Assembly (NCBI GenBank): GCA_041659685.1
Contig: JBAZXV010000002.1
Location: forward strand, 39,527 to 103,526
Reading direction: 5' to 3'
Source of the DNA: Parcubacteria group bacterium
Lineage (GTDB): Bacteria > Patescibacteriota > Minisyncoccia > Moranbacterales > UBA11712
Length of the DNA stretch: 64,000 nt
The notes beneath the pieces are model-generated. The model did no database searches. It saw only the letters and a program-made list of their open reading frames with translations, and was not told the DNA's origin. The translations under genes were made by a program, and so were the position numbers. This document shows, one piece after another, positions 16,597 to 64,000 of the stretch; position 1 is the stretch's first letter, and the number at the start of each line of letters is the position of its first letter.

Positions 16597-16842
16597 AACT
16601 TTGAAAACGAAAGGCAAGTTGGTTGTGTTTTTGGTTTTTTGGCGTATAATATAGATACAATTGAATGTCCTAACCCTAGCGGATTTTCCCTAGGTATGGC
16701 GCATAATCCACTGCAACATAGAGACGGCTTTCTGTCTCGTTATCGCGTTGCAGTGGTTGCCGCCCGAAAGGGTGGTAGGTGAGTTCCGAAAGGCACTTAC
16801 CGACGAGCGGGAAGCCTTTTGTGTTTGTTGGAGGCTATGACG

Positions 16843-46510: not shown

Positions 46511-49500
46511 ATGTTTATAGAAGTAAAATCCGAGGAGAGGAAAATAGGGCCGGAATCAGTTGAACAGATGGAAAGCGCGGAAACTATTGCCAAAGAGAAG
46601 ACGCCGGAAGAACAGCGGGCAGAGAATATTGAACTCATGACTCAAAGAGCCAGGCATTTTATTGCGGAAAAAAAAGCCGAAAAGGAGAAAAAAAATGCCC
46701 GCAGGGAACTGGAATCCGTTCCGCAGGATGTAGACCGGCCGGAAGGGCGGCAGAATGAAGAAGCGGAAGATGCACAAGAAAAACCGGGAGAGCAGAAGGG
46801 AATCATTTCAGGATTGAAAGATAAATACAGGCTATGGAAGCTGAAGCGGAGCGGATTTCCTGATCCCGGGAAAGCCTTGGGATTTTTTGAATATATAAGC
46901 AGCAGGGCAGATTCAACTTTAAAATTCGACAGCGACACCCTGAATCTGATAAGGGATACATTCAGAGCGACAAACGACCCGATTGCTTTTTATGAAAAAA
47001 TAAAGCAGCTGAACTTAAAGATCGCGCAGCCGATTATCAAACCCAATTACGGCTTAGGAACTTTGATGAGGGATCCGGATATATTTAAGAAGCTTGACCT
47101 TTGGCAGTCAGTCAATGAATCACTGGGATTTGGCGATGCAAATTCTTCGGGAGACGATCTCAGATATTTTTGCGGAGAAACCGAACTGCACGCCGGATTA
47201 TCCGCTGAAAATTTGAACCGGATCAGTCAATTGCGGAATTTATCGGGGTCGCTTTTTTCTGTGAGCGATCTGAACTGGCTGGCAAATTGCGTGGAGGACA
47301 GGCATACTTTTGAGTCGTTGGGAAAACTCTTGGGAAGTGAATATGCAAAAAACCTCAGAGACAAAAATATACTCAGAGTGGAAGACTTGGCAAAAAAACT
47401 GAAAGATCTCGACGCGAGCGGAATGACAGAGAGTCTGTTAATCGGAGCCGATATGAATTTGGATGTCGGGAGCGCCATAAGAGAGCTGACCTCCGAAGAT
47501 GAAGAAGAAAAAGCGGCGAGTGTCGAAAAAACAAAGGCATTGGAGCTGGAAGAACGAGCGAAAGACGAAAAATTCCGGGAGCTCGCCGGGGATCTCTCGC
47601 TCTTTTCCGGAAAGGATTTTGGAATAAATGAATACCAAAAATTGGAGAGCCTTTACCAATGGCACAAGGATTACGCGCTGGCTTTTGCGCAAGCTTTTGA
47701 GGATTTGGGTATCCTTAATCGATCCCAGGAAGGAACACTAAACCTTGAAGAATTCGAAGACACCCTGGGCCATTGGAAAAATGAGGCCGGATATGGCAGT
47801 CCGGAAGTTTTTTTCGCCCTTCTGGATCCTTCGTTCAATGAAATGATCTCAATTTTGAAAAGAGAGAAAGGCGACTTCAAGACAAGGGATATATTCAGAT
47901 ATGCTTTCCTGTATGCCCGAGAGCCGGAAGTCATTAAATCTTTGGAATCGGATGAAGGCAAAGAACTCCTGCAATTTTTTACGGAACGCGGAATGGATTT
48001 TCTGGGACACGCAGAATTTTTTAAGCATCCCGGAATTGCCAAAATGCTCAAAGGATATGATGAATTTTTTGATATTCAAAAAGGTTGGTCGCTAGACGGA
48101 TTTTTGGAGTTGTATAATCGAGGTGAGACGGCCAATGAATTATTAGATTACCTGAAAGAAAATAAATTCAAACCGGATGGAAAATTTGAGATCAATAAAA
48201 TCCCGCTTCTCGTTAAAATTCACAGCATCAAGGATTCCATCGATGCCGAATACTTCAGGAAATATCCCAATTTTTTTCTCAGCGAAAAGACTGTGGACTT
48301 TATAATAAGCGATCCAAGCAAAGCTCCCGACGTTTTTTCCTTGGCCGAAGACGGCTATCTTGAAGGGCAGAATTTCCAATCCATAAGGTGGTTTCTTCAA
48401 GACAACCTTGAAGACATTCTTGCTATTCCCCGTGAAAAAAGAGACACATATATGAAGCTTTACCGCCGATTGGACGGCTCTCCTTCTCAGGAGATACAAC
48501 GGCTGAAAAAAGAGCTTACCAGGGAACTGTTGAAACTGGATGAACCGGAAAGTGCATACCAGAGAATAGAAGAAATATTTATCACGAACAATTTGCCGCC
48601 GGTCGGAAAGATTTATAAAGTATTTGCGGTAATTCATTCTCCTGCCGCAATGCAAGAACTCCTGGAAAGCAACGACAGGCTTAGTCCGTGTCTCAGGGAG
48701 TCTTCGGTGAGAAAAAGATATACTACAATATACAGAGATCTTTTGAACATTCACATCAAGTCCGGGAACCGGATTCTGAGAGATTATCTGGAAGTCGCGA
48801 ATGAGGGACAGGGCATCTTCGACAAGATGGAAACAGAGGGCGAGGAAAGCCTGAATAATGAAGAGAGGAGAAAGGCGGAATTTGTCCTGAAAAAACTGAA
48901 AACGCTGTGGGAAAATTCATCGCGAGGGATGCGAATGGATCCAAACAATCTCAGCATAAACGACGGGCTTGGCAATTTTTATAATAATTTGAAGACATCA
49001 ATAGGTGCCAAGGAAGGGCAGACGGTCACGGCCCGAATTTCCCAAATGTTTTTAGCGCCTGCCGGATACCAAAGCATAGAGCACGTGTTGGCCGCAATGA
49101 ATGAAGCCAAAGGAAAGGCCGGCACGCGCGGTCTCGAAACGGCAGATCTCCTGCGAAAAGGAGAATTTAATATCAAGGCGGGAGATGTCATCAAAGGCAT
49201 GCCATCTGGCAGGATGGGAGCAATCTTGCAGGGCGGAGCGGTGGCAGGAGAATATTTAGGCAGTGAATCATCATCGGATTCCACTCCTTATGACTCCGAT
49301 GTTTTCAGGGTGTCTGATTTAGGGGGAAATGCGGATTTTTCGGAAAATATCAAAAAATATTTTGGTGAGGGATACGGAGATGTCAATATTATTGTAAGAG
49401 ACAGGGGCCAATTCGACGAAACTTCCAAAGGAAGCTCCAGGGGGTATGATCCTTCCAAGCTGGAACTGTTCAGAACCGGAGTGATTTCGAACGAACATTA

Positions 49501-50587
49501 CGGGATTCGGACCGGCTTTCCTTCAAGTGAGATAGACTTGATGGTTGTCAGCGAAAACACCAAACAAGATGAAAAAAGGATGTCAAAGCTCTTTTTTGAT
49601 ATCGCCGAAAACGGATTTTATATCCCCGTTGCTGATACTTCCGGGAAATTGATTTTTAGTCCGGAGCAATATGAAGAATACCGAAGAATATTCAGAGGCC
49701 TGGAAAGATTTGATGGAAACAAGTTTGAATATCTGAACACGAAAGAAGGCGATCAAAACTACGATGAGGTGGAGAGGATTCGAAGGGAATTCAAAGAGGA
49801 TAGGGACCGCGTTGCGGCTCTGTCTCAGAAAATTAGAGACATGATAACCGACGTGTTGCGACAGCACGAAGTCACGTTGCGGGATAATCTGGACAACAGC
49901 ATCTTAGGCGCCGAACTAATGGACATAGGGTCCACGGCGAGGCATACTAATGCGATCGGGGATTATGATTTTGACCTGACTTTGCGGCTGGATGACCGGG
50001 ACATGGACAAAATAGGTGATATTGTCCGGGACCTCCAGGCCGGATTGCAGGCTGAAAGTTATTCAGATTCTCACGGAGATGAAAAAGGTGGCTACCAATT
50101 GAGGGCTAAACAGGGCCGCTTGTCCGGAGAAAATCCGGCGGATATCGACATTGGCTTTGTCCGCAAGTCCGACCTCGTTTATTTCGGATCTCACGAAGCC
50201 GTGCAGGAGCGTTTGGATTGGATAAAAAATAATATTAGCGAAGAGGCTTATGAAAAAACGATTGCGAACGTTATTCTGGCAAAAAAAATTCTGAAAGAAG
50301 GCAAAGCTTATAAGCGCGTGGAAGACGGCGGGATGGGCGGCATCAGTGTTGAGAATTGGATATTGCTCAACAGCGGCAATCTTGTCGAAGCATTCAGAAC
50401 TTTTTTGGCTGCTGCGATCGATGAAAACGGAACCCAGGTTCCGTTGGATGAATTCAAGCAGAAATACAAGATCCTTAATCCGGGAATGAATCTCAAAAAG
50501 CTTTATCATGACAATTATACGATGAATTTGAAGGAAGGGGGATATAACGCAATGATAAAAACCATTGAAAATTATCTCAAAGGTTGA
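46511..50587 (+). CDS. Giant (1358 aa) acidic protein with C-terminal Pol-beta-superfamily nucleotidyltransferase domain; candidate secreted/effector NTase (AMPylase-like)
   Basis: N-terminal charged coiled coil. At about aa 1140, MDIGSTARHTNAIGDYDFDLTLRL is the hG[GS]-x9-13-DhD NTase motif. A downstream third acidic strand ADIDIGFVRK. About 47% GC. Confidence 0.6.
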   Translation: MFIEVKSEERKIGPESVEQMESAETIAKEKTPEEQRAENIELMTQRARHFIAEKKAEKEKKNARRELESVPQDVDRPEGRQNEEAEDAQEKPGEQKGIISGLKDKYRLWKLKRSGFPDPGKALGFFEYISSRADSTLKFDSDTLNLIRDTFRATNDPIAFYEKIKQLNLKIAQPIIKPNYGLGTLMRDPDIFKKLDLWQSVNESLGFGDANSSGDDLRYFCGETELHAGLSAENLNRISQLRNLSGSLFSVSDLNWLANCVEDRHTFESLGKLLGSEYAKNLRDKNILRVEDLAKKLKDLDASGMTESLLIGADMNLDVGSAIRELTSEDEEEKAASVEKTKALELEERAKDEKFRELAGDLSLFSGKDFGINEYQKLESLYQWHKDYALAFAQAFEDLGILNRSQEGTLNLEEFEDTLGHWKNEAGYGSPEVFFALLDPSFNEMISILKREKGDFKTRDIFRYAFLYAREPEVIKSLESDEGKELLQFFTERGMDFLGHAEFFKHPGIAKMLKGYDEFFDIQKGWSLDGFLELYNRGETANELLDYLKENKFKPDGKFEINKIPLLVKIHSIKDSIDAEYFRKYPNFFLSEKTVDFIISDPSKAPDVFSLAEDGYLEGQNFQSIRWFLQDNLEDILAIPREKRDTYMKLYRRLDGSPSQEIQRLKKELTRELLKLDEPESAYQRIEEIFITNNLPPVGKIYKVFAVIHSPAAMQELLESNDRLSPCLRESSVRKRYTTIYRDLLNIHIKSGNRILRDYLEVANEGQGIFDKMETEGEESLNNEERRKAEFVLKKLKTLWENSSRGMRMDPNNLSINDGLGNFYNNLKTSIGAKEGQTVTARISQMFLAPAGYQSIEHVLAAMNEAKGKAGTRGLETADLLRKGEFNIKAGDVIKGMPSGRMGAILQGGAVAGEYLGSESSSDSTPYDSDVFRVSDLGGNADFSENIKKYFGEGYGDVNIIVRDRGQFDETSKGSSRGYDPSKLELFRTGVISNEHYGIRTGFPSSEIDLMVVSENTKQDEKRMSKLFFDIAENGFYIPVADTSGKLIFSPEQYEEYRRIFRGLERFDGNKFEYLNTKEGDQNYDEVERIRREFKEDRDRVAALSQKIRDMITDVLRQHEVTLRDNLDNSILGAELMDIGSTARHTNAIGDYDFDLTLRLDDRDMDKIGDIVRDLQAGLQAESYSDSHGDEKGGYQLRAKQGRLSGENPADIDIGFVRKSDLVYFGSHEAVQERLDWIKNNISEEAYEKTIANVILAKKILKEGKAYKRVEDGGMGGISVENWILLNSGNLVEAFRTFLAAAIDENGTQVPLDEFKQKYKILNPGMNLKKLYHDNYTMNLKEGGYNAMIKTIENYLKG

Positions 50588-52695: not shown

Positions 52696-53718
52696 ATGAC
52701 AAAAATCAATTTTTCAAAGGTTTCTTCCGGAGCAGAAGGAACGAGTTTTAAAGCAATAAAGCGGTTTATCGACGACAATTTTCTTCACTTCAATGCTGCG
52801 GCGCTCAAAGACGCTTCGCAAGGATACATTGATCATTTGGAAAGAGGCGGAAAAATGATGGTGACCCTCGCAGGAGCAATGAGTACGGCGGAACTTGGCA
52901 TTACGCTCTCCGAAATGATCCGGCAGGACAAGATTAACGCAATCACCTGCACTGGAGCAAATCTCGAAGAGGATATTTTCAATTTGGTCGCCCATGAACA
53001 TTACAAGCGAGTTCCAAATTACAGGGATTTGTCCCCGGAGGACGAAGAAAGGCTCTTCAGCGAAAAATTCAATCGGGTGACGGACACTTGTATTCCGGAA
53101 GAGGAAGCGATGAAGCGGATTGAAGTGCAGATGTGGGATTTGTGGCAGGCGGCCGATAGCGCGGGAGAAAGACTGTTTCCTTATGAATATATGTACCAGT
53201 TGCTTCGTTCGGGCCGTCTCGAAAAATATTTTCAGATCAATCCGAAAAACTCTTGGCTGCTCGCGGCCGCGGAGAAAAATCTGCCAATCTTCGTTCCCGG
53301 CTGGGAAGATTCGACGCTGGGCAATATGTTTGTCGCCTTTGTCAGGAGGGAAAAGGTTTCAGGATTCCAAATTGTAAAAAGCGGAACGGAAACAATGGAT
53401 TTTCTTGTGGATTGGTATTTGGAGAATACAAAAAGAAGTTCTATCGGATTTTTTCAGATCGGCGGCGGCATTGCGGGTGATTTTCCGATTTGCGTTGTTC
53501 CGCTGATTCAGCAGGACTTGAAAGAAGATTGCCGTCTCTGGGGATATTTTTGCCAGATTTCTGACAGCACAACATCCTATGGATCATACAGCGGGGCTGT
53601 TCCGAACGAGAAAATTACCTGGGGAAAGCTCGGAAAAGACACTCCGCGATTTGTAATTGAAAGCGATGCCAGCATTGTCGCGCCGCTTATGTTCGCGTAC
53701 ATACTTGGAAGAAACTGA
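52696..53718 (+). CDS. Deoxyhypusine synthase-like protein (DHS family)
   Basis: ITCTGANLEEDIFNL matches the TTAGGVEEDL block of deoxyhypusine synthases. Glycine-rich GGGIAGDFP NAD-binding region. Confidence 0.7.
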   Translation: MTKINFSKVSSGAEGTSFKAIKRFIDDNFLHFNAAALKDASQGYIDHLERGGKMMVTLAGAMSTAELGITLSEMIRQDKINAITCTGANLEEDIFNLVAHEHYKRVPNYRDLSPEDEERLFSEKFNRVTDTCIPEEEAMKRIEVQMWDLWQAADSAGERLFPYEYMYQLLRSGRLEKYFQINPKNSWLLAAAEKNLPIFVPGWEDSTLGNMFVAFVRREKVSGFQIVKSGTETMDFLVDWYLENTKRSSIGFFQIGGGIAGDFPICVVPLIQQDLKEDCRLWGYFCQISDSTTSYGSYSGAVPNEKITWGKLGKDTPRFVIESDASIVAPLMFAYILGRN

Positions 53719-57364: not shown

Positions 57365-58375
57365 TTACTGAGTGTTGTTGAGAACTTCTTTAGCCGCCTT
57401 CCAAAATTCGGGGCGGTTCTGTTTTGTTTTCAGCCAATACCACCATTCGGCGCCCCAAAGATAATTTTCGGGAAAACCGACTTGTTCGGCGTAAGAAATA
57501 TTTTCCTGAAACTGAGCGAGGTTCATTGATTTTTCCTGCTCTTCAAGTGTGAGATCATAAATCAGCTTCGGCCCCCACGGTTCGGCCTGGAGTTCAGAAA
57601 CAACAATCGGTTTTTCAGGGTTGAACAAATGGACAACATTGGCTTTGAACCAGAAAAATCTGGGCGGCAAAGGGTAATGAAAATAGCCTCCGGCTTTGGG
57701 GCTATAAATAACGCGGTACATTGTCGTCCCGAAAATATCCGCTCGATTGGCGGCCGGCACCCAAATAGAAAGTTCGCCGCTGTCGGTCACCATGATTTTG
57801 TGGTTCGGATCTGCTTCACGGACAAGCGCCACTTCCCGGTCCAGGAAGTTTTTATCCGTTATTGCGCATTCTCCAAACGAAAGGAAGGGTTCATTGTCCA
57901 CTTGCCAGAGATAAAGGTTGGGGATATCCCGATACCGCTTTACGGATTCGGACATGAAGTTTATTAAATCATCCTCTTTCTCATTTTCAGGAAGTTTATC
58001 CGTCCAGACCGGAGCATGGCATTCCGGCCATCGGGGAAGCTTCCGTCCCGCGACCAAAATCAATTCAACATCCCGTTTTTTCGCTTCTTCAATCATCCAA
58101 TCATAATCAGCAAAATTATATTTTCCCGCCTGAGACTCAATATCCTGCCAGTAAAGGGGGAGGCGGACCCTTTTTACGCCGAGGTCATCAAGAACGGCAA
58201 GATAATTTTCCCGCCAGTCGAGCCCCATTTCCGTCGAAAAAGGTTTTGAAAAAGCGACGCCCCATTTAATGTCGTCGGGATTATCGGCGAGCCCGGTTGG
58301 CCTTCTGATAAGATAAAGAAACGCCAGCGCAAAAACGGCGAGAATAATAATTGTTTTTTTGAACCCTATTTTCAT
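57365..58375 (-). CDS. Secreted glycoside hydrolase, TIM-barrel GH5-like (clan GH-A)
   Basis: N-terminal signal/anchor. WQVDNEPF contains the NEP acid/base motif of clan GH-A. Confidence 0.5.
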   Translation of the reverse strand: MKIGFKKTIIILAVFALAFLYLIRRPTGLADNPDDIKWGVAFSKPFSTEMGLDWRENYLAVLDDLGVKRVRLPLYWQDIESQAGKYNFADYDWMIEEAKKRDVELILVAGRKLPRWPECHAPVWTDKLPENEKEDDLINFMSESVKRYRDIPNLYLWQVDNEPFLSFGECAITDKNFLDREVALVREADPNHKIMVTDSGELSIWVPAANRADIFGTTMYRVIYSPKAGGYFHYPLPPRFFWFKANVVHLFNPEKPIVVSELQAEPWGPKLIYDLTLEEQEKSMNLAQFQENISYAEQVGFPENYLWGAEWWYWLKTKQNRPEFWKAAKEVLNNTQ

Positions 58376-59425: not shown

Positions 59426-60697
59426 TTACGGTTCAGCGCGGGGAGTCAGTTTGTTTTCTTTGCAAATTTTCGCGAATTCATACGCGCTGGGACGAATTCT
59501 GCGTTCCATGGTTTTATAGTCCACTTCAATGAGTCCGAATCGCGGCCAAAAACCGCGCACTTCCGGCATTTCAAAGTTATCCAAGAATGACCAGTAAAGA
59601 TAACCTCTCACATCCACTCCGTCTTGGATGGCCCGGTGAATCCAATAAAGATGTTCCTTCACAAATCTTTCCCGTTGAACATCCGCGGAGTCCGCCAATC
59701 CGTTTTCGGTAATATAAATCGGGAGATTGTATTTATGGATTTTTTTCAGGACATGATAAATTCCCTTTGGACAGATCTCCCAACCGAGGTCCGTTTTATC
59801 CTTCAGGGGAATTTTTCTCTCCCTATGAGCGACTATGATTCTGATGTAATAGTTATAGCCTATAAAGTCCAGGTAACCCTTGGATCTTTTGAGAAAAAAA
59901 TTACTGAAACCGCTCAGAAAAGAGGCTAATAATTTATTGATGGGTTTCCATATTTCAACTTGGAAAAAAACTGCGCTATGCGCGAAGCCCGCCTTGGATT
60001 TTGGACTGATATTGTGAATAATTCCATATGATTTTTTGTAGGCTTTCAGCAGATTAAAGTATGCTTTCAGAAAATAGAAAGGGTTCTTTTTTCCGGGCGG
60101 TTGGGTGCCTAACAAATAACTGAATCCCGTGTAAACATTGGGCTCGTTTATCACAAGCCAGAATCTCACGTCTTCTCCCAAAGATCTCAATATCTTTTCA
60201 ATGTATCTTTCGAAGAATGACACTGATTTTTTTGAAACCCATCCTCCTTTTTCATTGAACCAGACGGGATTAGTGAAATGCCAAAGCGTCACGAACGGTT
60301 CCATACCGCGCGCGCGGATCGCACGGATGACTTTTCGGTAGTGTTCTATTTCGTGTTCGTCGAACTCTCCTTCTTTGGGCTCGATTCGCGACCATTCGAT
60401 GGAAATGCGGAAGGCATTCATGTTCAACGATTCAGCAATATCAAAATCTTTCTCGTAGCGGTTATAATGTTCGCAGGCGCGGCCGGAAATATAATTTTCG
60501 GGATCAAACATTTCGGGAAATTTTTCTTGCTGCCAGCGCGCCCATTTCGTTTTTGCTTTGCCGGCAAGGCGCTTTGCGTTTTCCTTTTCCCACTCCGTCC
60601 AATCATTCATATTTCCTCCTTCGACTTGGTGGGCCGAAATCGCCGCCCCCCAAAGGAATCCTTTCGGAAATCGCAAAGATTTATTTTTATCTTCCAT
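59426..60697 (-). CDS. bglA: Glycoside hydrolase family 1 beta-glucosidase
   Basis: Acid/base LVINEPNV (NEP) and nucleophile YITENG. N-terminal FLWGAAISAHQVEG. Confidence 0.85.
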   Translation of the reverse strand: MEDKNKSLRFPKGFLWGAAISAHQVEGGNMNDWTEWEKENAKRLAGKAKTKWARWQQEKFPEMFDPENYISGRACEHYNRYEKDFDIAESLNMNAFRISIEWSRIEPKEGEFDEHEIEHYRKVIRAIRARGMEPFVTLWHFTNPVWFNEKGGWVSKKSVSFFERYIEKILRSLGEDVRFWLVINEPNVYTGFSYLLGTQPPGKKNPFYFLKAYFNLLKAYKKSYGIIHNISPKSKAGFAHSAVFFQVEIWKPINKLLASFLSGFSNFFLKRSKGYLDFIGYNYYIRIIVAHRERKIPLKDKTDLGWEICPKGIYHVLKKIHKYNLPIYITENGLADSADVQRERFVKEHLYWIHRAIQDGVDVRGYLYWSFLDNFEMPEVRGFWPRFGLIEVDYKTMERRIRPSAYEFAKICKENKLTPRAEP

Positions 60698-61527: not shown

Positions 61528-61679
61528 TGCGGCGGTGGCACTCCAAAAAAATCCGGGTTTGATATTTAGGCTTGCGGCGGCCAGGAGCGGGAGATGCATA
61601 GACAGATTATCAAGTATTTGGGATAATTATTTCAGATAAATTTTAAGTTGGAGGCCGGTCCTCCTTTTATTTAATAAAA

Positions 61680-63206
61680 ATGAAAAACATTCAAATTCTA
61701 ATCGTGGATATGGGGTCGCAATACACTTTGGTCATCGGAAGAACGCTCAGAGAGATGGGATACCGGAGCGCGATTTTGTCTCCGGGAAAAACTGAAGGCT
61801 GGCTCAAATCCAATAAACCAAGCGCAATTATCCTGTCAGGCGGGAGCGCGAGCGTCTATGAAGAAAATTCTCCGCAGCCCCCCAAAAATATCTTTAAAAT
61901 AAATGTTCCTGTTCTGGGCGTGTGCTATGGCATGCAATGGATCGCGCACACCGGGGGCGGCCGGGTCATCTCACACCATGAGCGAAAAGAATATGGTGAA
62001 GCGACAGCAGAGTTTGACACAAAAGACCTCTTGTTCCATGGCATAAAAAAGAAAAGTGTGGTTTGGGCAAGTCATGGAGACAGCGTGGAAAAAGTGCCGG
62101 ATGGATTCAAGGTAATTGCCAGATCCGGGGATGGGAAAATAATCGAAGCCATGAGCAGTCCGGCAAAAAAAATATGGGGCGTTCAATTTCATCCCGAGGT
62201 TACGCATTCCAGGGAAGGCAAAAAAGTTTTGATTAACTTTATCGAACGAATCGCAAGATGTGAAAAAGATTGGCAGCCGGCAGACATGATTAACGACATT
62301 CGAAATGAAGTTTCGAAAGCGATGCAAACTAAAAAGGCCATTATTGGCTTTAGCGGCGGAGTTGATTCAACAGCGCTTTCGGCCGTCATTGCGCCGGTCT
62401 CCGGGAAAAATCTCTTGGCCGTCTGCATCGATACGGGAGGACTCCGCAGAAATGAACTCGAAGAAATAAAATTTAATGCCCAGGCGGCAGGCGTAAAACT
62501 GAAAATCGTAAAAGCCTCAGATCGGTTTCAAAAAGCAATCGGGAAGCAGACCCATTCGGAACTGAAGCGCAAAAATTTCAAAAAAATTTACGGCCGTATT
62601 TTTGAGGAAGAAGCCAGGAAGTTCAAAGCTGATTTCATTGTGCAGGGGAGTCTTGCCACCGATCTTATCGAATCGGGATCCGCCGGAAAAGCCGACCTTA
62701 TAAAATCACACCACAACGTGGGGCTTAATCTTAAAGTGAAGGAATTGCATCCATTCCGAAATCTCTTTAAGTATGAAGTGCGGGAACTGGCGCGGTCGCT
62801 CAAGCTTCCGCAGTCCGTTTCGGGAAGGCAGCCCTTTCCGGGCCCGGGTCTTTTCATCCGAGTAATTGGAGAACCGCCGACAAAAGACAGGCTTGAAATT
62901 GTCCGTTGGGCGGACGGTGAGGTAACCGATATTCTCAAAAAACATAAGGTCTATCAGGGTGTTTCCCAGCTCATCGTGGCGCTGGACTGCCAGCGGACAG
63001 TCGGTATCAAGGGTGATGGGCGCGTCTATGCCTATTCAGTTATTGTGCGCGGAGTGAAAACTCTGGATTTTATGACCGCCGAAGGTTATCAATTTTCAGC
63101 CGATGTCCGGCGTGAGATATCAAACTCCGTCACCAAGCATCCAAGGATTGTCCGTGTCTTTTTCGACGAAACCAATAAGCCGCCGGCGACGACGGAGATG
63201 GAGTAA
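61680..63206 (+). CDS. guaA: GMP synthase (glutamine-hydrolysing)
   Basis: GATase catalytic Cys block GVCYGMQ. ATP-PPase P-loop GFSGGVDS. C-terminal dimerisation domain. Confidence 0.9.
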   Translation: MKNIQILIVDMGSQYTLVIGRTLREMGYRSAILSPGKTEGWLKSNKPSAIILSGGSASVYEENSPQPPKNIFKINVPVLGVCYGMQWIAHTGGGRVISHHERKEYGEATAEFDTKDLLFHGIKKKSVVWASHGDSVEKVPDGFKVIARSGDGKIIEAMSSPAKKIWGVQFHPEVTHSREGKKVLINFIERIARCEKDWQPADMINDIRNEVSKAMQTKKAIIGFSGGVDSTALSAVIAPVSGKNLLAVCIDTGGLRRNELEEIKFNAQAAGVKLKIVKASDRFQKAIGKQTHSELKRKNFKKIYGRIFEEEARKFKADFIVQGSLATDLIESGSAGKADLIKSHHNVGLNLKVKELHPFRNLFKYEVRELARSLKLPQSVSGRQPFPGPGLFIRVIGEPPTKDRLEIVRWADGEVTDILKKHKVYQGVSQLIVALDCQRTVGIKGDGRVYAYSVIVRGVKTLDFMTAEGYQFSADVRREISNSVTKHPRIVRVFFDETNKPPATTEME

Positions 63207-63209
63207 AAA

Positions 63210-64000
63210 ATGAATTTATCACTTCTCGAAAAACTGAAAAAGTGGCAAAACGAGCGGGCGCGGCGGGATAATATCGAAGCCTATCGCGTTTTGCCTTATT
63301 TGACGCTGGAAGAAATCGCGAGGCGTGAGCCCCGGACATCTGCGGAACTTCTTGAAGTCAAAGGAATTAAAGAAAAGAAAATGGCGCGGTACGGAAAGGA
63401 AATTCTGGCGATTGTGAATGAAGCGCCGGATGATCAAGGCTTGACCTTTCTCCCCCCGACGTTACGTCGGGGTTCCTCAAGGTCGAACCTTGCAGACGAC
63501 AATATTTTTGAAGTCGGGGAATATTTGGATTTTTTGAATCTGAAGCTCCTTGACGCCGAGGCGAAAATAAAAGGAGAAGTGTCCAGTGTTGAAAATCGGG
63601 GAAACTATATTTTTTTTGGGATAAAGGATAAAGAGAACGAAAGCCTTTTGAATTGTTTTATCTGGGGAAATGACTATCGGATCAGCGGCGTAGAGCTTGA
63701 AGAGGGAATGGAAGTCGTCATCTGGGGCTATCCAAATGTGTATAAACCGAGCGGGAGACTTTCATTTCAAACCAAACTCATTGAAATTGTGGGAGAAGGA
63801 GCGCTTAAAAAAGCCTATGACGAGCTGAAAAGAAAGCTGGAAAGTGAGGGTGTGTTTGCGCCGGAGCGAAAAAAAATAATTCCCGATTTTTCCCATAAAA
63901 TAGGGCTTATCACATCACATCAGGGCGCAGCGATCGGAGATTTCACGTCTAATCTGGGAAGTTACGGTTTTCAGATAAAATTCTATGACACCCGAGTGGA
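63210..64000 (+). CDS. xseA: Exodeoxyribonuclease VII large subunit with an N-terminal HRDC-like domain; 3'-truncated by the window end
   Basis: ORF is open to the window end. The XseA OB-fold/catalytic block is NYIFFGIKDKENESLLNCFIWG...VVIWGYPNVYKPSGRLSFQ...IGLITSHQGAAIGDF. It is preceded by IEAYRVLPYLTLEEIARREPRTSAELLEVKGIKEKKMARYGKEILAIV, an HRDC consensus. Confidence 0.7.
   Translation, partial: MNLSLLEKLKKWQNERARRDNIEAYRVLPYLTLEEIARREPRTSAELLEVKGIKEKKMARYGKEILAIVNEAPDDQGLTFLPPTLRRGSSRSNLADDNIFEVGEYLDFLNLKLLDAEAKIKGEVSSVENRGNYIFFGIKDKENESLLNCFIWGNDYRISGVELEEGMEVVIWGYPNVYKPSGRLSFQTKLIEIVGEGALKKAYDELKRKLESEGVFAPERKKIIPDFSHKIGLITSHQGAAIGDFTSNLGSYGFQIKFYDTRV

Follow-up and report, generated by a model that had tools for sequence, protein, structure and literature searches.

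The end of a 64,000-nucleotide stretch of DNA from a Parcubacteria group bacterium (GenBank assembly GCA_041659685.1, contig JBAZXV010000002.1, positions 39,527 to 103,526 of the forward strand; hereafter the window) raises the question of whether xseA, the gene for the large subunit of exonuclease VII (ExoVII), can carry an HRDC domain at its 5' end, and what such a domain would do there. A reading of the letters alone, made without database searches (the sequence-only reading), had proposed that the open reading frame (ORF) starting at 63210 encodes about 75 amino acids (aa) of HRDC, a linker of about 20 aa and then the OB fold and catalytic region of XseA. This layout turned out to be essentially right, and the coordinates, domain order and approximate sizes given there were all correct. 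We find that HRDC-XseA is a real, conserved and so far undescribed variant of a known enzyme.

An HRDC domain in front of XseA

Evidence for the fusion begins with the reading frame. From the ATG at 63210 the frame continues uninterrupted to the end of the window, i.e., for 263 codons, and these 263 aa are part of a protein expected to be roughly 480-500 aa long (complete relatives have 475-582 aa); the truncation that the sequence-only reading had pointed out is thus borne out. Homologues align from residue 1-5, which backs the ATG at 63210 as the start. This ATG stands upstream of the HRDC segment and is kept in relatives, which answers the earlier concern that the true start might lie downstream. 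No plausible internal start that would yield a canonical XseA was found, and none lies in frame near the OB-fold boundary.

The Pfam HRDC profile (PF00570) matches residues 3-69 over profile positions 2-68 of 68, with E=2.3e-19 and 69.5 bits against a gathering threshold of 23.8. Of the NCBIfam models matching residues 4-71, the C-terminal HRDC part of the RecQ model scores better than RNase D (5.5e-12 vs 7.7e-6), and this RecQ model, TIGR01389, is matched solely at positions 523-590 of 591, i.e., in its HRDC part. Sequence matches in the PDB were to 2rhf (3.8e-10), 1wud (8.3e-8) and 2ma1 (2.1e-7).

To this we added a structure prediction of the HRDC domain, linker and OB fold with AlphaFold2, built on a 36-sequence alignment. 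Residues 1-70 are predicted to form five helices (residues 3-20, 24-27, 30-39, 44-48 and 55-70) with a predicted local distance difference test (pLDDT) score of 92-97, or 82-97 when the HRDC-only model is counted as well. Foldseek searches with the two-domain model were dominated by OB-fold matches, and the HRDC domain was therefore modelled alone. The top match of this model was the HRDC domain of E. coli RecQ (1wud), with a template modelling (TM) score of 0.86-0.90, a root-mean-square deviation of 0.5 Å over 70 columns and 33% identity; it was followed by HRDC3 of D. radiodurans RecQ (2rhf) and by the HRDC domains of BLM, WRN, RNase D and Rrp6, the last two at ranks 15-32. Judged by its profile matches and predicted fold, the N-terminal domain is a bona fide HRDC domain, as had been claimed for residues 1-75, and one of the RecQ type.

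The protein as a whole was also considered as a RecQ or an RNase D, and both are ruled out by the absence of the helicase and DEDD domains: the fusion protein has no Pfam match to a DEAD/Helicase_C core, a zinc-binding domain or RQC, nor to the DEDD 3'-5' exonuclease domain (DNA_pol_A_exo1), and rnd models match in the HRDC part alone. No other ORF in the window codes for an HRDC domain.

Beyond the linker, the protein is XseA, in agreement with the sequence-only reading. Pfam tRNA_anti_2 (PF13742, the XseA OB fold) matches residues 114-191 with E=2.8e-13 and 50.4 bits (gathering 27), and, like HRDC, stands above its threshold. Exonuc_VII_L (PF02601) matches residues 215-260 with E=6.3e-8 and 32.9 bits against a gathering threshold of 35.9, a shortfall explained by the end of the window, which comes at position 48 of the 315 in the profile. 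For the same reason the NCBIfam xseA model TIGR00237, which matches residues 117-260 with E=1.5e-35, scores 123 against a cut-off of 180. The top fold match of the two-domain model was E. coli ExoVII (8txr), followed by other OB folds. D244 (63939-63941), in the motif GAAIGD, corresponds to E. coli D155.

The remainder of the enzyme can be followed in relatives. The closest full-length one (L004; loci are numbered with L and proteins with P throughout) has 475 aa and is 79% identical; it matches E. coli XseA (8txr_A) at 6.5e-40, its residues 104-377 aligning with E. coli 28-302 and its C-terminal domain (407-475) with 378-447. All four catalytic equivalents are kept in L004, namely D155 (GAAIGD), R205 (RGGGS) and H238/D241 (GHEKD); position 238 of 8txr itself is Ala, since that structure was solved from an H238A mutant. 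Complete relative ORFs cover the XseA core to its end, and xseB (PF02609) lies directly downstream of HRDC-xseA in nearly every locus long enough to show it. All features open to testing place the protein in the XseA family.

Distribution among Patescibacteria

The fusion was also looked for elsewhere. The first protein search already returned many proteins with PF00570, PF13742 and PF02601. When one genome was then scanned for each GTDB species, 67 loci came up, and in 58 of these the HRDC domain and the XseA core are in one uninterrupted ORF. The scan relied on two lineage-specific peptide patterns, [IV]KGIKEKK and NY[IL]FFx[IVL]KD, taken from a 6-sequence alignment (a 17-sequence alignment had no conserved stretch of 7-10 columns), and for this reason the 58 genomes are a lower bound and restriction of the fusion to Patescibacteria is not proven. 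The spread of the fusion, which the sequence-only reading could not confirm, comes to at least 58 species-level Patescibacteria genomes.

The closest group is Moraniibacteriota/Moranbacteria, with L004 and then L006 (GW2011_GWC2_40_12, 78% identical) and L005 (RIFOXYB1_FULL_43_19, 76% identical). Other carriers are labelled Parcubacteria group, Taga-, Yonath-, Nomura- and Azambacteria, Paceibacterota or "Patescibacteria group", and protein searches add Taylor-, Staskawicz- and Woesebacteria, along with Moranbacteria. Wherever the label is credible, all genomes in which the fusion was found are Patescibacteria.

Some TPA_asm records with the fusion are labelled Bdellovibrionales, Gammaproteobacteria or Bathyarchaeia; they are among L010, L011, L013, L025, L032, L051 and L053-L058. 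The fusions so labelled lie on short contigs, and in a neighbour-joining tree their XseA sequences are nested inside those of Patescibacteria. The labels are probably wrong automatic names, or the contigs mis-binned.

The HRDC segment was also compared by itself, in an exhaustive HMMER search, with 1.84 billion cluster representatives, which gave 3,693 matches at E <= 1e-3 and 122 at <= 1e-10. The closest single-copy HRDC domains (45-54% identity) are the N-termini of 495-566-aa proteins and come from XseA fusions. Among the 148 proteins that this search newly listed (clusters at 50% identity), an XseA core is present in 26 or more; P0134, for instance, has by Pfam an HRDC domain, tRNA_anti_2 and a full-length Exonuc_VII_L. 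Precomputed domain tables undercount the fusion. P0010 (locus L003), listed without HRDC, encodes the domain upstream of its called start (nucleotides about 70-270); a run of A there carries a frameshift of 1 nt, whether through faulty assembly or through a pseudogenising mutation. The sequences of P0040, P0042 and P0051 begin halfway through the HRDC domain.

Selection, loss and replacement of the HRDC domain

Where the synonymous rate could be estimated, the ratio of nonsynonymous to synonymous substitution rates (dN/dS) between the window and its closest relatives was 0.09-0.14 for the HRDC domain and 0.03-0.08 for the OB fold, which indicates that the HRDC domain is constrained, somewhat less tightly than the OB fold. 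Across 17-33 diverse fusions, L9, W12, A17, P41, K51, G52, K57 and G62 form an invariant HRDC core.

The history of the fusion was approached with the neighbour-joining tree of the OB and catalytic core, which holds 157 sequences (79 of them HRDC-positive) and is indicative only. HRDC-positive sequences are spread over most clades, with HRDC-negative ones nested among them; one large clade, including sequences labelled Paceibacterota and Minisyncoccia, is uniformly HRDC-negative. In L059-L063 and L067 the HRDC domain is absent at the DNA level. XseA proteins of related Patescibacteria that lack it (L059, which is P0035, L060, P0024, P0025, P0041, P0059 and P0066) often carry, before the OB fold, an N-terminal tail of 25-50 aa rich in Lys and Arg, and P0044 and P0065 keep just a "LLQKLK" motif resembling HRDC helix 1. 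The simplest reading of these sequences is an old fusion in part of Patescibacteria, followed by repeated loss. There may also have been several independent gains of the HRDC domain.

The linker and its palindromic insert

In the AlphaFold2 model the stretch from about residue 71 to 100 is predicted to be disordered (pLDDT 46-60), in line with the linker proposed earlier, and the two-domain model has a predicted TM score (pTM) of 0.46. The prediction is thus of two well-folded domains whose mutual orientation is not fixed. Linkers of the fusion proteins have a median length of 19 aa (range 0-84) and are acidic in 82%.

Most of the linker in the window is encoded by a nested palindrome of 58 nt. 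Its predicted RNA fold has an energy of -33.9 kcal/mol (z = -4.5), and none of 200 shuffled sequences was as stable. It was also considered as a terminator, and it is not called as one. The design is one of outer arms AAGGYTYGACCTT/AAGGTCGAACCTT around a variable inner hairpin, and the in-frame translation of the insert reads "QG(S/L)TF....SSRSNL". There is no second copy within the window.

The outer arms AAGGTTCGACCTT/AAGGTCGAACCTT are met again in related loci of Moranbacteria, in two kinds of place. They are found in frame at the same linker position in L006 (3227-3285), L009 (from 3227) and L013 (around 2202), and they are found at the 3' end of xseA or around xseB in L004 (4414-4471), L005 (4465-4477 and 4753-4789) and L009 (4444-4456). 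In L004, one arm encodes the final codons (KVEP) and the stop of xseA. These positions outside the linker indicate that the element is dispersed and not specific to the linker; the linkers of L004, L007 and L008 are without this insertion. Unrelated perfect palindromes occupy the same linker spot in L012 (22-bp arms, -39.7 kcal/mol), L018 (12-bp arms) and L010 (two nested), and the linkers of several homologues hold peptides typical of translated repeat elements, e.g., "IPAKAGIQ..SRLRGNDK" and "IPAYAGMT". The palindrome looks like a small dispersed palindromic repeat element that was inserted in frame into a tolerant linker; we take it to be reminiscent of the Rickettsia palindromic elements. 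Its in-frame insertion lends independent support to the linker being an unstructured tether.

A possible role for the HRDC domain

We think it reasonably probable that HRDC-XseA is a selectively maintained variant in which a flexible, mostly acidic linker attaches the HRDC domain as an accessory module for binding single-stranded DNA (ssDNA) or structured DNA; the function in DNA-structure recognition suggested by the sequence-only reading is, in this respect, a plausible inference. Charge is in keeping with such a role. The HRDC domain in the window has a net charge of +4 and an isoelectric point (pI) of 9.57, against +4 and 9.87 for that of E. coli RecQ, and across the HRDC domains of 112 fusion proteins the median net charge is +4 and the median pI 9.46, with a pI above 8 in 96%. 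Y25 (63282-63284) aligns with the Tyr of "PPYVVF" in E. coli RecQ, which was taken as Y555 by counting residues along the 1wud chain, and position 25 is Y or F in 94 of the 112 proteins. The HRDC domain of E. coli RecQ binds ssDNA, an ability that it loses entirely with the Y555A substitution (PMC4464074).

Known ExoVII architecture suggests where the added domain would be. E. coli ExoVII is an XseA4XseB24 spindle whose central head contains the N-terminal OB folds, dimerised and exchanged between pairs of XseA; this swapping gives a sterically autoinhibited enzyme. ssDNA breaks the complex up into halves (XseA2XseB12) whose OB and nuclease domains are mobile (PMC10835039). Since the OB folds are in the head and become mobile upon DNA binding, an N-terminal appendage would sit where the substrate enters. 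The OB fold, the D/R/H/D catalytic domain, the XseB-binding stalk, the C-terminal barrel and xseB are all ordinary, which makes it most likely that the fusion protein would assemble and cut ssDNA like ExoVII. The HRDC domain, tethered beside the OB fold and nuclease head, could then act as a second, low-affinity site for ssDNA or for DNA at single-strand/double-strand junctions. Its additional contacts might raise the local concentration of substrate or bias the enzyme to flaps, forks and overhangs, by analogy with bacterial RecQ, where the HRDC domain acts similarly. Four such modules per complex, on flexible tethers around the head, may help to capture or select the substrate. That Lys/Arg-rich tails replace the HRDC domain in relatives is consistent with a DNA-binding role of N-terminal appendages.

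Several points weigh against this interpretation. Not all HRDC domains bind DNA; some work through protein contacts instead. The HRDC domain is lost or eroded in several sub-lineages and is thus dispensable in some backgrounds. The aromatic residue at position 25 is weak evidence, being frequent in HRDC domains generally. For this protein, R205, H238, D241, the stalk, the C-terminal domain and xseB lie beyond the window and are known from relatives alone. Finally, the helicase core is another docking partner of the HRDC domain in RecQ and BLM (PMC4464074).

The main competing explanation is that the HRDC domain is mainly regulatory or a protein-interaction module, which docks on the head or neck of XseA and tunes an autoinhibited assembly of the XseA4XseB24 type, or which recruits ExoVII to a repair or replication protein. 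E. coli ExoVII is indeed autoinhibited by OB-fold swapping and opened by DNA (PMC10835039), the HRDC domain of RecQ and BLM alternates between DNA-bound and core-bound modes and suppresses the ATPase (PMC4464074), and an acidic linker beside a basic domain could favour intramolecular contacts. However, AlphaFold2 fixes no orientation between the HRDC domain and the OB fold (pTM 0.46, with a disordered linker); a linker of such variable length (0-84 aa), open to inserted repeats, mildly disfavours a precise docking geometry; and the HRDC surface is consistently basic, like that of the DNA-binding E. coli RecQ domain. We therefore regard a chiefly regulatory HRDC domain as unlikely, if well worth keeping in mind. 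A bolder proposal goes beyond the accessory-module reading: in genome-reduced Patescibacteria the HRDC domain would make ExoVII a structure-targeted enzyme (forks, flaps, gaps, recombination intermediates) that partly replaces processing of the RecQ/RecJ type, or, alternatively, would gate the autoinhibited assembly. This we find rather improbable. If structure targeting were true, the repeated loss of the HRDC domain or its replacement by a basic tail would mark a lineage-specific rewiring of DNA repair.

Other explanations fare worse. The domain could steer the enzyme to RNA or RNA-DNA hybrids, as RNase D and Rrp6 pair an HRDC domain with an exoribonuclease, and the HRDC domains of both match structurally, that of RNase D also by sequence (7.7e-6); the closer likeness to RecQ (5.5e-12) and the fact that ExoVII is DNA-specific as far as is known leave this idea with very little probability. 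It is also highly doubtful that the HRDC domain is a functionless leftover decaying in this lineage. Nested among the HRDC-positive sequences of the tree are relatives with half an HRDC domain (P0040, P0042, P0051), with "LLQKLK" only (P0044, P0065) or with no trace of it (L059-L063), but the clade of the window itself has a complete domain, at 69.5 bits, pLDDT above 92 and dN/dS of 0.09-0.14. As for an artefact, whether from genes merged by an assembly or sequencing error or from a true start downstream, one may point to the truncation of the gene, to its origin in an uncultured-type genome and to the frameshift inside the HRDC segment of L003/P0010. Against this stand a single uninterrupted ORF in the window and in 58 independent species-level genomes, a GGAG resembling a ribosome-binding site 6 nt before the ATG with no in-frame start near the OB-fold boundary, and HRDC codons at a dN/dS of about 0.1, by which the artefact is effectively refuted.

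Comparison with known systems

E. coli XseA (8txr) shares with the fusion protein the OB fold and a catalytic domain with the D155 equivalent, as seen in the window, and the rest as seen in the closest relative. It begins a few residues before the OB fold, whereas the fusion has about 100 extra N-terminal residues. The RecQ HRDC domains (E. coli 1wud; D. radiodurans 2rhf and 2ma1) have the same five-helix fold, 33-41% identity and a Tyr at the Y555 position; they are C-terminal on a helicase, while the fusion's HRDC domain is N-terminal on a nuclease. RNase D and Rrp6 share the design of an exonuclease with an HRDC accessory domain, and the HRDC folds match. In contrast to the fusion, their nuclease fold is unrelated, their substrate is RNA, their HRDC domain is C-terminal and packed on the nuclease, and the sequence likeness is weaker than that to RecQ.

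The nearest HRDC domains on partners other than XseA (P0121, P0122, P0127, P0267 and L068) are found in the combinations GIY-YIG + zinc knuckle + 4 HRDC, UvrD + 3 HRDC, 3 HRDC + Pif1, N-terminal HRDC + PhoH-like ATPase, and DinG-like helicase + HRDC; RecQ is also among the nearest partners. HRDC is evidently a promiscuous accessory module on many DNA-processing enzymes. These other fusions differ from HRDC-XseA in their catalytic partners and in that the HRDC domain is often in tandem repeats.

A survey of ExoVII in about 340 species reported variation in stalk length and did not report N-terminal domains, and the 2024 structure paper that contains this phylogenetic survey does not mention an HRDC fusion (PMC10835039). 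A search of the accessible literature for HRDC together with exonuclease VII or XseA gave incidental co-mentions, with no description of an HRDC-ExoVII fusion, and one for RecQ in Patescibacteria yielded nothing of use. Databases name the fusion proteins simply "exodeoxyribonuclease VII large subunit", including those from genomes of the GW2011 and RIFOXYB1 series.

The first structure of ExoVII dates from 2024, and its substrate selection is still poorly understood. A natural ExoVII variant with a well-understood DNA-recognition module on the substrate-entry side would be a ready probe of that selection. The fusion adds a nuclease partner to an HRDC repertoire made up mostly of helicases plus RNase D/Rrp6, and the plasticity of the XseA N-terminus in Patescibacteria (HRDC, basic tail or nothing) bears on how organisms with minimal sets of repair genes diversify the few enzymes left to them. 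In practical terms the finding is of modest value: databases already list these proteins as XseA, and new chemistry is not implied.

Genomic context and other features of the window

The features of the locus are collected in Table 1. Just 3 nt separate the guaA stop from the ATG at 63210. A promoter-like site at 61599-61627 precedes guaA, and no terminator-like site was seen at the guaA-xseA junction, which makes it likely that guaA and xseA are co-transcribed. Among the closest relatives, guaA is upstream only in L007 and L009, and the guaA-xseA linkage is confined to closest relatives.

Table 1. Features of the HRDC-xseA locus, with positions in the window
Feature	Position	Strand	Remarks
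guaA (GMP synthase), upstream neighbour	61680..63206	+	GATase and GMP_synt_C domains
Shine-Dalgarno-like GGAG	63200..63203	+	6 nt before the ATG, within the final guaA codons
xseA 5' part, HRDC-XseA fusion	63210..64000	+	263 codons; runs past the window end
HRDC domain, residues 1-72	63210..63425	+	Pfam match at residues 3-69; predicted five-helix bundle
Interdomain linker, residues 73-100	63426..63509	+	predicted disordered
Nested palindrome, 58 nt	63435..63492		encodes most of the linker, peptide QGLTFLPPTLRRGSSRSNL
Palindrome arms	within 63435..63492		outer arms CAAGGCTTGACCTT/AAGGTCGAACCTTG; inner arms CCCCGACGT/ACGTCGGGG
XseA N-terminal OB fold, residues about 101-195	63510..63794	+	pLDDT above 92
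Connecting helix and first part of the catalytic domain, residues 196-263	63795..63998	+	domain continues beyond the window

Elsewhere in the window, which has a GC content of 40.0%, the sole Rfam family above threshold is LOOT RNA (RF03000), matched over the full model at 16667-16797 on the plus strand with 58.2 bits (gathering 46.4) and E=2.4e-8. ARAGORN found no tRNA genes in the window. An ORF of 1358 aa at 46511-50587 (plus strand) has no Pfam match at E <= 1e-4. At 52696-53718, also on the plus strand, lies an ORF resembling deoxyhypusine synthase (PF01916, 6e-41), a family best known from archaea and eukaryotes. Just upstream of the guaA-xseA region, the minus strand encodes glycoside hydrolases, one of family GH1 (59426-60697) and one GH5-like (57365-58375).

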